From assembly GCA_038245785.1 (NCBI GenBank), contig JBBRSB010000040.1:1-29250 (forward strand): DNA of 29,250 nt. Reading direction: 5' to 3'. The notes under the pieces were generated by a model that did no database searches, had not been told where the DNA came from, and saw only the letters and a list, made by a program, of their open reading frames with translations. Shown here piece by piece: positions 24,808 through 29,095 of the stretch. Made by a program: the position numbers and the translations under genes. Every line of letters begins with the position of its first letter. Position 1 is the stretch's first letter. This DNA comes from Gloeobacterales cyanobacterium (GTDB lineage Bacteria > Cyanobacteriota > Cyanobacteriia > Gloeobacterales > PMM-0068).

Positions 24808-25005
24808 ATGAAAATGATTTCAACTAAAAATTGGCTGTATTTGGGCGGAGTGTTCTTCGTATCAGCCGTGCTTTCTGCGGTCGTTAAGTATGCGCTGCCC
24901 CTATTTATCACAACACCTAGTAAGCCCTTCCTATGGTTCGCTATCCTTTTTCCCGCTGCTGCAATGACGCTGATATTGCTGAATTCAAAGGATTCCCCTA
25001 CTTAG
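24808..25005 (+). CDS. small two-TM membrane protein
   Basis: Two hydrophobic helices (WLYLGGVFFVSAVLSAVVKYALP; FLWFAILFPAAAMTLILL). Start is uncertain (24778 or 24808). Confidence 0.6.
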   Translation: MKMISTKNWLYLGGVFFVSAVLSAVVKYALPLFITTPSKPFLWFAILFPAAAMTLILLNSKDSPT

Positions 25006-25468
25006 GAATGCTATCCTCTCTTGTATTTGAGCCCCTATATTCTTCTGAACCTTTATCAATTTTCTTTAAAGGTTCAGCACCCCGATAAGGTTTACCTATA
25101 TAGAAGACGGCAATCCCCGCTGCATGACCTAGACGATCGGTACGGAATGCTTTATCCGCATAGTAGCGGTCTATTTCTGCACACATCTTTTCAGAAGTCA
25201 TATTGTTGGAACCAACACTGATATTGAAACTGGAAGCGGCAGATTTTTTATAGGCAACGATAGAAGATTGACAGAATTTGAGCTTGTCCGGTTTCGTAGC
25301 GGTCAGCCATCGCTCGCCCGTGTCATCTCCCTTGAGGACATTGCTAGCAGTCTTATCAATAGCGGGGGAACTCGCTGCTTTGGCGGCCTCTGTCGTTTGC
25401 GTGGTAGCAGGTTTACTACCGCAAGCACCCAACAGCACGACTAGACTCAGCAGGATCCAAGGTTTCAT
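24998..25468 (-). CDS. hypothetical lipoprotein
   Basis: MKPWILLSLVVLLGA-C lipobox, an Ala/Thr-rich linker and two further Cys. Confidence 0.8.
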   Translation of the reverse strand: MKPWILLSLVVLLGACGSKPATTQTTEAAKAASSPAIDKTASNVLKGDDTGERWLTATKPDKLKFCQSSIVAYKKSAASSFNISVGSNNMTSEKMCAEIDRYYADKAFRTDRLGHAAGIAVFYIGKPYRGAEPLKKIDKGSEEYRGSNTREDSIPK

Positions 25469-25541: not shown

Positions 25542-25570
25542 TTGACAAGCCCAGAGCGGAGTGCTACGTT
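25542..25570 (+). promoter_or_regulatory. sigma70-type promoter of the riboswitch-metK transcript
   Basis: TTGACA-N17-TACGTT with an extended TG. The predicted start site (about 25577) falls just before aptamer helix P1. Confidence 0.75.
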
Positions 25571-25584
25571 GTTCCACAGAGTGA

Positions 25585-25709
25585 AATCTATCTAGAGCTG
25601 ACGGTAGTGATGCTTTGCGTATCACTTGGGAACAGGCCCAAAACCGTCCGGCAACTGGCCTCAAGGTAGGTGCAGTGCCAACTCCTGCGGTAAAGCCGAA
25701 AGATAGATT
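25585..25709 (+). ncRNA. SAM-I (S-box) riboswitch aptamer, variant with an extra hairpin in P2
   Basis: P1 AATCTATC/GATAGATT; J1/2 TAGAG; P2 GACGG/CCGTC and GGG-AACAGG-CCC; P3 GGC-AA-CTG...CAG-T-GCC; J3/4 AACTCCTG pairing with loop CAGG; P4 CGGT/GCCG; AAAGAT. Lies upstream of metK. Confidence 0.92.
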
Positions 25710-25857
25710 GTCTAGTTTGACGAGTGTTAGGAAGGGTTTCTCTATGTAGAGAGGCTTAGTTCCAATACACAAGGCCCATAAACCTGTGCGTCCCGGCACC
25801 TTCTCCCTTTTTGGAGGTGCGCTGTTCGATACCCATTCTTAGCCAGGAGCACGCTCT

Positions 25858-27211: not shown

Positions 27212-29095
27212 ATGCTCGGACAAACTGAGAAAGGGACGATATCCGTCCATACCGAAAATATCTTTCCGATCATCAAGCGGTGGCTTTACTCAGATAAGGA
27301 TATTTTTCTCCGTGAACTGATTTCCAACGCAGCCGATGCGATCAGTAAGCTCAGAATGCTGGGCTATTCAGGAGAGTTTGCAGGCAGCTCCGATGAAGGG
27401 GTTATCCAGGTCACCCTAGATAAAGAAGCCCGGACCTTGACCATTGAAGATAATGGCATTGGCATGAATGCTGATGAGGTGAAGAAATACATCACCCAGA
27501 TTGCTTTTTCCAGCGCCGAAGAGTTTATCGAGCAGTACAAGAGTTCAGAAGATGTAAACCAGCAAATCATCGGTCACTTTGGTTTGGGTTTTTATTCCTC
27601 TTTCATGGTGTCGGAACGGGTCGAGATAGAAACGCTTTCTTACCGTCCAGAGAGTGAGGCCGTACTTTGGCAATGTGACGGGACGACCAACTTTGAGATT
27701 GGCCCTTCGACCAGAACAAAACGAGGGACAGCAGTCAGACTCTTCATTGATAAAGAGAGTGAAGAATTTCTTGAAGAAGCGAAAATCAAAGAGCTTATTC
27801 GCAGCTACTGTGATTTCCTACCCATCCAGATTATGTTCAATGGGGAACAGGCCAATCGCCAGAAACCCCTATGGGTAATCTCACCCAGCTCCCTTACTGA
27901 TGAGGACTACTTAGAATTCTATCGCTACCTTTACCCTATGAATAAGGAGCCGCTGTTTTGGGTCCATCTCAATACGGATTATCCTTTTACCCTGCAGGGC
28001 ATTCTCTATTTTCCTCGCCTGCGGCCGGATTTAGACTTTACAAAAGGGCAAATAAAACTCTTCTGCAATCAAGTTTTTGTTACTAATAACTGTGAGGAAA
28101 TCATTCCTCAATTTCTGACACCGCTCCAAGGGGCGGTCGATAGTCCTGATATTCCATTGAATGTCTCACGGAGCTTCCTGCAAGCAGACCGGACCGTACG
28201 CCGCATATCTGACTATGTTGCTAAGAAGGTAGCCGACCGACTGAAAGAACTTTTTCAGCAAGAGAGAGAAAAGTATCAACAATACTGGAAAGATATTCAT
28301 CTGTTCGTGAAATATGGCGTCATGAACAATGACAAGTTCTATGAGCAGGTCAAGGATATTATCATTTTCCAATCAACAGCTTCCGAGGAATATACAACTC
28401 TTGCTGAATACCTAGAACGCAATAAAGAGCTGCTTACAGATAGTCCTCAGAAAGAGAAAAAGGTTTACTATGCCTCAGATACCAGCGCGCAGGCTAACTA
28501 CTTAGAACTGCTAAAAGCCCAAGGCGTTGAAGCCCTAGTCCTCGACTCGTTCATCGATTCTCACTTTGTGAATTTCCTAGAGCAGCACAATCCAGAAGCA
28601 CGTTTTGCCCGTGTGGACTCAGAGATTCATGAACAAACGTTGGAGCAAGATAAGGCCAACGAGTTAGTAGATGCCAAGACGAACAAGACCCGTACGGAGC
28701 AGTTGGTTGATTTGTTTAAAGCCAAACTCCATTTGCCCAAGCTCAATGTTCGAGCCGAAGCTCTAAAAACACAGACGATTCCAGCCGTTTTGCTCCTGCC
28801 TGAGTCTCTACGTCGCTTCAAAGAGATGACTGCCTTGATGCAACAGAAACAGATGGAATTTCTAGAGGACCACACGCTGGTTTTGAATACCAATCATCCA
28901 TTGATTCAGAATATCCCTCAACTAGAAGATGAAGGTCTTTCTGAACTCGTTTGTCGCCATGTCTATGACTTGGCCTTACTTTCTCAGAAAAACTTCGATG
29001 CGGAGACGATGGGCCAGTTTATCCAACGCTCTAATGAAGTGCTGACCCGTCTTTCCGGTCGGGCAGTAGGGGCGGAGATCCCCCCAACTCCTTGA
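27212..29095 (+). CDS. htpG: Hsp90 chaperone HtpG
   Basis: LYSDKDIFLRELISNAADA, IEDNGIGM, IGHFGLGFYSSF and DIPLNVSRSFLQ. Confidence 0.98.
   Translation: MLGQTEKGTISVHTENIFPIIKRWLYSDKDIFLRELISNAADAISKLRMLGYSGEFAGSSDEGVIQVTLDKEARTLTIEDNGIGMNADEVKKYITQIAFSSAEEFIEQYKSSEDVNQQIIGHFGLGFYSSFMVSERVEIETLSYRPESEAVLWQCDGTTNFEIGPSTRTKRGTAVRLFIDKESEEFLEEAKIKELIRSYCDFLPIQIMFNGEQANRQKPLWVISPSSLTDEDYLEFYRYLYPMNKEPLFWVHLNTDYPFTLQGILYFPRLRPDLDFTKGQIKLFCNQVFVTNNCEEIIPQFLTPLQGAVDSPDIPLNVSRSFLQADRTVRRISDYVAKKVADRLKELFQQEREKYQQYWKDIHLFVKYGVMNNDKFYEQVKDIIIFQSTASEEYTTLAEYLERNKELLTDSPQKEKKVYYASDTSAQANYLELLKAQGVEALVLDSFIDSHFVNFLEQHNPEARFARVDSEIHEQTLEQDKANELVDAKTNKTRTEQLVDLFKAKLHLPKLNVRAEALKTQTIPAVLLLPESLRRFKEMTALMQQKQMEFLEDHTLVLNTNHPLIQNIPQLEDEGLSELVCRHVYDLALLSQKNFDAETMGQFIQRSNEVLTRLSGRAVGAEIPPTP

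Follow-up and report, generated by a model that had tools for sequence, protein, structure and literature searches.

SAM-I riboswitches (RF00162) combine a pocket for S-adenosylmethionine (SAM) with a four-way junction of helices P1 to P4, and helix P2 must bend for its loop L2 to pair with the strand J3/4 as a pseudoknot (PMC4316175, PMC3064774). The kink-turn (k-turn) of SAM-I P2, with its tandem G-A pairs, has become a standard test bed for RNA helix bending. SAM-IV (RF00634) shares the SAM pocket and keeps the corresponding pseudoknot, PK-1, with a turn of another type than the k-turn, namely a 4-nt two-way element; it lacks P4 and carries PK-2 and P5 (PMC6890682). SAM-I/IV (RF01725), as far as its description goes, shares the pocket and P4 and has no k-turn, an undivided P2 and no PK-1. 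K-junctions, in which a k-turn core carries an additional T helix, are reported in the thiamine pyrophosphate riboswitch and in J4,5 of ribosomal RNA, and not in SAM-I, in the accessible part of PMC4005666. Finally, a SAM-I aptamer engineered to carry an unrelated bend, a foreign pk-turn, still bound SAM about 1000-fold more weakly (Kd 300 µM versus 0.54 µM; PMC3672288). Here we describe an aptamer upstream of metK at positions 25585-25709 of the window, the whole 29,250-nt stretch of contig JBBRSB010000040.1 from a Gloeobacterales cyanobacterium that was analysed. It shares with SAM-I the four-way junction, the pocket, the L2-J3/4 pseudoknot, the J3/4 adenines and the place before metK. It differs in that the k-turn with its tandem G-A pairs is missing, the 5' strand of P2 carries a hairpin of 21 nt, the score lies under the family cut-off and a U-tailed terminator is lacking. 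The engineered pk-turn RNA is artificial and two-way, whereas the window RNA is natural and three-way.

The RF00162 covariance model matched exactly this interval over its full length, with P2 alone left unaligned, and this was the sole SAM-I match in a genome-wide search. As the initial annotation had anticipated for standard models, the match scored poorly, its 40.5 bits not reaching the gathering score of 44.4 bits. The pocket (P1 AUC/GAU, J1/2 G, P3 loop GC-AA-C / G-U-GC) agreed with the RF00162 consensus, and the AA base-triple nucleotides, at 25680-25681, lie 5' of the J3/4 pseudoknot strand CCUG (the role of the J3/4 adenines is described in PMC3064774). P4 was seen in the predicted fold, and the pseudoknot, four Watson-Crick pairs, was assessed as complementarity only. 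The gene downstream is metK, a SAM gene, as expected for a SAM-I leader. The sequence and the SAM-I core had therefore been reported correctly. The comparison with related Rfam models that had been proposed as a check gave no match in the genome to RF00634 or RF01725 at E values up to 10. A SAM-IV identity was rejected on this result and the presence of P4, and a SAM-I/IV identity on the missing match and the PK-1 complementarity. Identity with the spermidine riboswitch, set apart by its description (PMC10853860), was rejected on the SAM-I-consensus pocket and the metK gene downstream. We conclude that 25585-25709 reads as a SAM-I aptamer with intact pocket and pseudoknot, in which an inserted hairpin replaces the k-turn.

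This replacement, already recognized in the initial annotation, was borne out by folding and by alignment to relatives from the same order. The minimum-energy fold contained the P2 three-way junction (z -2.65, with 1 of 200 shuffles equally stable), as did 99.6% of 1000 sampled structures. When the 21-nt insert was shuffled 20000 times, no more than 12 of the shuffles matched its folding stability. The insert is located 3' of a U-A that matches k-turn positions 2n and 1n of orthologues from another family of the order (f3, see below). An 8-bp hairpin at 25606-25626 facing AAAA, as originally drawn, is what the window RNA folds into. Its register is nonetheless ambiguous: AAAA in the window is AAUA in both congeneric genomes, which permits every base of the junction to pair, P2a and the insert (25607-25625) then having 7 bp each and P2b having 5 bp. 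The junction is thus not reliably A-rich, and calling it so was an overstatement; in other bacterial groups the 3' junction strand measures 0-5 nt. Neither blastn nor a pattern search detected a second copy of the hairpin in the window genome, and the idea that the insert copies a genomic repeat there was rejected on this result.

Table 1. Features of the metK leader and gene in the window.
Feature	Position	Strand	Basis
Probable sigma-70-type promoter: TTGACA, 17-nt spacer, TG-extended -10 TACGTT	25542..25570	+	read directly
SAM-I aptamer (P1-P4, pseudoknot)	25585..25709	+	RF00162 40.5 bits, E 1.9e-7
P1	25585-25592 pairing 25702-25709	+	sequence and fold
P2 three-way junction in place of k-turn (P2a, inserted helix, P2b with loop L2)	25600..25648	+	folds; alignment to order-mates
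P2a	25600-25604 pairing 25644-25648	+	sequence and fold
Inserted hairpin, 7-8 bp, 5-nt loop	25606..25626	+	5' strand of P2
P2b	25628-25630 pairing 25637-25639	+	sequence and fold
L2 strand of pseudoknot, CAGG	25633..25636	+	four Watson-Crick pairs with 25684-25687
3' junction strand AAAA, opposite insert	25640-25643	+	sequence
J3/4 strand of pseudoknot, CCUG	25684..25687	+	RF00162 alignment; complementarity to L2
First downstream hairpin, no U-tract	25724..25770	+	fold kept among congeners, sequence not
Second downstream hairpin, no U-tract	25796..25820	+	8-bp stem conserved in three congeners, loop variable
Shine-Dalgarno-like AGGAG	25845..25849	+	read directly; conserved in three congeners
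metK, methionine adenosyltransferase (SAM synthetase), 423 aa	25858..27129	+	TIGR01034 536.5 bits vs cut-off 309.4

Within the genus, three distinct aptamers were available, from the window genome (G000) and two congeners (G001 and G002). The insert was kept in both congeners, whose RF00162 scores (40.6 and 40.1 bits) likewise fell under the cut-off, and the pocket was invariant in all three. Only 7 of 125 aptamer columns varied, against 73 of 171 in the downstream leader. In the insert, variation touched 2 of 5 loop columns and 1 of 16 stem columns, a change from G-U to G-C that keeps the pair, as compared to 85-87 of 190 fourfold sites of metK (about 45%; binomial p ~0.001). This difference indicates that the inserted stem is under selection in the genus, and conservation of the hairpin in homologous leaders, on which the initial annotation had made its call depend, is thereby found. 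A scan of metagenomes returned 12 matches, namely 3 real ones with an aptamer identical to that of G001, 3 representing one canonical k-turn SAM-I and 6 due to chance; scans of viral contigs gave 4 long-P2 matches with no riboswitch among them, and 5 ordinary k-turn aptamers.

The initial annotation had considered a lineage-specific subclass possible, but the topology is not confined to this lineage. A pattern scan of species-representative genomes for SAM-I with a long P2 returned at least 119 loci. Of the 119 listed, 87 were sorted out by script as ordinary aptamers with a k-turn, their P3 containing a second GCAAC, and the remaining 32 were classed by eye and fold; among these matches listed, 19 had a 5'-strand hairpin between P2a and P2b, 4 a hairpin in J1/2, and 9 were other or chance matches. 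The 19 variants comprised 10 clostridial-type and 9 Patescibacteria-labelled records, and one further member came from a clade-specific pattern applied to about 300 genomes of one clostridial family. The inserted hairpins have no sequence in common with the window insert or between groups. In most of the examples listed the 5'-strand insertion goes together with loss of the k-turn. By these alignments and folds, the topology recurs in at least three bacterial groups: this cyanobacterial genus, Clostridia and Patescibacteria. The variant is rare. A sample of 151 genomes of a Patescibacteria class yielded it in none of 20 other SAM-I matches, under strict filters that lose weak matches, and the Rfam cut-off was passed by 7 of the 19 variants and missed by 12 (among the matches listed).

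The pseudoknot persists in these RNAs. In a set of 23 aptamers (the three of the genus and 20 others), in which the first two pairs were fixed by the search pattern, the third pair was complementary in all 23 (A-U 11, U-A 12) and the fourth in 16, with three pair types (C-G, U-A, A-U). The extra helix itself covaried in the largest clostridial clade, where seven sequences displayed two-sided changes at 6 of its 7 pairs and 97.9% of cells could pair; none of 500 shuffles reached the whole-structure values and slid controls gave 32-45% paired, although the figure is not to be taken as a probability because the sequences are kin to one another and one of them supplied the structure. Most clostridial and Patescibacteria variants are followed by hairpin-plus-U terminators, and such ordinary terminators make them easier to test.

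Across the host order, SAM-I is common at metK: RF00162 matched in 13 of 14 genomes, in 8 over the cut-off, and each time at this gene. SAM-I, which the initial annotation had called uncommon in cyanobacteria, is thus nothing unusual in this order; from the other photosynthetic cyanobacteria sampled the family is nearly absent. In a sample of the phylum, RF00162 matches over the cut-off all lay outside the class of the window organism, and the 8 of 29 loci that could be parsed had ordinary k-turns, which says little on the frequency of the variant. At metK, all seven genomes of family f3 (L014, L019, L020, L022, L023, L025, L026) retain an element resembling a k-turn, in which 2n is U and 3b-3n is a C-G pair. 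Such a 3b-3n pair is found in 0.1% of SAM-I k-turns and makes for poor folding (PMC4382518), which suggests that the k-turn was already weak in the order. A MetK tree left the order of families f1, f2 and f3 unresolved. The window MetK grouped with cyanobacteria, with weak support (83/63) and one row on a very long branch, and on this grouping we do not favour the idea that Clostridia or Patescibacteria donated a riboswitch-metK cassette. KaiA was absent from all 14 genomes of the order and present in 17 of 17 other members of the class; we take this loss to fit Gloeobacterales, the order named in the initial annotation.

We propose, with a probability of about 0.68, that the locus is a working SAM-I riboswitch that exerts feedback control on metK via a P2 built as a three-way junction. 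In its favour stand the intact RF00162 core before metK, the constraint on the aptamer and on the inserted stem, the recurrence of the topology, the covarying pseudoknot and extra helix of other groups, and the U-tailed terminators that many of the variants there have. Aptamers that have no k-turn still show a complementary, covarying pseudoknot, so that some other bend must exist, the simplest candidate being a three-way junction whose new helix stacks on P2b; the junction would then act in place of the k-turn. The inserted helix would stack on P2b as the T helix does on the C helix in k-junctions, and the strand exchange would fold P2b back on P2a so that L2 could pair with J3/4. The pocket formed by P1, P3 and J1/2, itself unchanged, would bind SAM with an affinity probably below that of k-turn aptamers, which would suit a switch acting only at high SAM. 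Weakened binding has a precedent in the engineered pk-turn RNA, and a G2nU,G3nU mutant of the SAM-I k-turn still binds at 1.95 µM (PMC3651934). High SAM may lower metK expression, this OFF logic being the weakest step. As to output, our best guess is attenuation or control of messenger stability through the two conserved hairpins without U-tracts, translational control being about as likely; hairpins that lack a U-tract or stand in tandem serve as terminators in some bacteria (PMC2258182). A bolder version, which we hold to be doubtful as it stands, is that the subclass arose independently at least three times as a three-way junction with an undescribed bend motif doing the job of the k-turn, and was favoured at metK leaders for its weakened SAM affinity. 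Affinity would in that case be tuned to the range where SAM synthesis should stop. That the same swap occurs in two other bacterial groups makes the k-turn look replaceable in nature.

Several observations weigh against this proposal. In the T. tengcongensis aptamer, changing the k-turn to a plain bulge, or the substitutions A1nC or A1nU, abolishes detectable binding (PMC3651934). Genome G009 of family f2 retains the pseudoknot while lacking both k-turn and hairpin, so that the hairpin may be dispensable; in three further f2 genomes (L005:1382-1475, L017:1385-1476 and the reverse strand of L027) the SAM-I at metK is without k-turn and without pseudoknot. No two-sided compensatory change was visible in the insert helix within the genus, the data holding only three distinct aptamers. 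In two Patescibacteria variants, L143 and L152, the junction was rare in full-length ensembles (0.02 and 0.001). The place before metK speaks for the proposal in that, among the matches listed, metK lay downstream in 16 of 18 variants with enough flank as against 17 of 84 k-turn matches, but this enrichment is confounded by taxon (6 of 8 versus 8 of 20 within Patescibacteria, p 0.21). No expression platform emerged either: a scan of the leader found no terminator-like site, U-tailed terminators included, no Rho domain was found in the 98% complete genome, and the predicted accessibility of the Shine-Dalgarno (SD) sequence changed inconsistently across the three congeners between folds with P1 forced and P1 open. 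On these respective results an intrinsic terminator, Rho and SD occlusion coupled to P1 are not supported as output steps. Nor could any one conserved alternative helix be singled out, since 26 helices of at least 6 bp are conserved among three such close sequences.

Some of these facts would also follow if SAM were bound and the hairpin had come in passively where the k-turn had already decayed, the tertiary fold bending a flexible joint and the hairpin persisting only since P2 would misfold if it came unpaired. Tolerance of variable stem-loop insertions has been described (PMC2258182), and the impaired k-turns of f3 would provide the decayed site. G009 shares with the window RNA the P3 sequence and the UU-GGG...CCC-A joint, together with the pseudoknot. 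The aptamer at L028:1374-1478, which retains the pseudoknot as CAGG/CCUG and lacks both k-turn and extra hairpin, resembles the window RNA minus its insert. Hairpins elsewhere in the aptamer point the same way: four of the matches listed have theirs in J1/2, L200 and L202 from the Patescibacteria class sample carry them on the 3' strand of P2, and the insert of four Patescibacteria genomes looks like a palindromic repeat that is scattered at 1-9 copies per genome (0 matches with a reversed control). Passive insertion does not, on the other hand, account for a stem sequence far more conserved in the genus than neutral sites, for a helix whose length stays within 6-9 bp and which covaries in the clostridial clade, or for the k-turn loss that accompanies the 5'-strand insertion in most examples. 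We regard this explanation as possible, yet unlikely.

A true k-junction, with a surviving k-turn core and the hairpin as its T helix, seems less probable still. The insert sits where the T helix would in the alignment with k-turn orthologues (definition of PMC4005666), and A25606 and A25643 would occupy positions 1n and 2b; both adenines occur in each of the three congeners and correspond to the U-A and 2b-A of the f3 orthologues, although this holds in one of the two registers. The L061 group and L089 moreover retain a UGA bulged strand. At position 1b, however, G000 has A and both G001 and G002 have U, with G in none, whereas the 1b-1n pair of k-junctions is G-A in 75.8% and A-A in 16.9% of cases (PMC4005666). 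The junction strand has at most 4 nt, leaving a loop that is short or absent and too short if two U-A pairs form, and the variants of other groups, including the largest clostridial clade, have no unpaired nucleotide on the bulged strand. We do not file the variant as a k-junction because G1b and a proper loop are missing. Rather improbable, too, is that the fold no longer switches and persists as a structured 5' leader, for instance for stability, with regulation of metK lost. The fruitless scans for terminator, Rho and a P1-coupled SD change, the erosion of P2 across f2 and the near absence of SAM-I from other photosynthetic cyanobacteria sampled would fit such a relic; invariant pocket, P1 and pseudoknot nucleotides in three congeners whose adjacent leader has diverged would not. 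A very remote prospect is a changed ligand or an inverted logic. Ligand-switched SAM-I variants do exist (PMC10853860), but the spermidine variants stand before polyamine genes and have alterations in J1/2 and in the internal loop of P3, whereas here the pocket is at consensus and the gene is metK. Inverted logic would have the free J3/4 strand CUCCUG cover the SD sequence CAGGAG at low SAM, a 6-bp pairing possible in all three congeners; it is one of the 26 conserved helices and would make a positive feedback. The working riboswitch with a three-way P2 remains the reading that we prefer.

A full-text literature search, with most subscription journals out of reach, yielded no description of a SAM-I whose P2 is a three-way junction. 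In the 2007 SAM-I alignment (accessible part of the PMC2258182 supplement) the structure line shows no long insert columns at this site, and the current Rfam full alignment may include members above the cut-off. To judge from the comparisons above, this is a recurrent structural variant of SAM-I, new as a variant, real and selected. Natural aptamers with a covarying pseudoknot and no k-turn can serve directly as constructs to find out what junctions are able to stand in for a k-turn and whether affinity is tuned by the bend, and in the order a single gene is preceded by a natural graded set: impaired k-turn, plain joint, three-way junction and pseudoknot loss. They also expose an annotation gap, with 12 of 19 variants elsewhere (among the matches listed) and all three of the genus under the Rfam cut-off.

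Further observations concern relatives of the aptamer. In the f3 metK leaders 8 bases lying 5' of P1 are complementary to a conserved segment just before the ribosome-binding site, possibly a translational switch. P2 of the pseudoknot-less f2 aptamers is a short hairpin in two genomes and a long irregular helix, missed by RF00162, in the third; in all three (L005, L017, L027) P1 ends near the ribosome-binding site. A cyanobacterium outside the order has a canonical SAM-I (L007:1091-1202, 84.8 bits) about 300 bases upstream of metK. L094, L110, L111 and L162 are the loci with a J1/2 hairpin before an intact k-turn P2; all four precede metK and three are labelled Gastranaerophilales. Palindromic hairpins occur in P2, P3 or P4 of the Patescibacteria loci L059, L089, L143, L152, L198, L200, L202 and L203. 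L079, on a contig labelled Sodaliphilus, a Bacteroidota name, has an aptamer and leader nearly identical to those of clostridial L064 and L135, reflecting either misbinning or transfer.

In the window itself, TTGACA lies at a comparable distance in both congeners and in order-mates. The -10 box agrees with the consensus at only 3 of 6 positions, so that a consensus scan overlooked the promoter; transcription would start near 25577. The start of metK lies 149 nt past the aptamer end. On the opposite strand, 24998-25468 holds a divergent 156-aa open reading frame with a lipoprotein-like N-terminus and no NCBIfam match. Downstream, htpG (27212-29095, plus strand) begins 82 bases 3' of metK and comes after it in G001 and G002 too, so that it may share the metK transcript.
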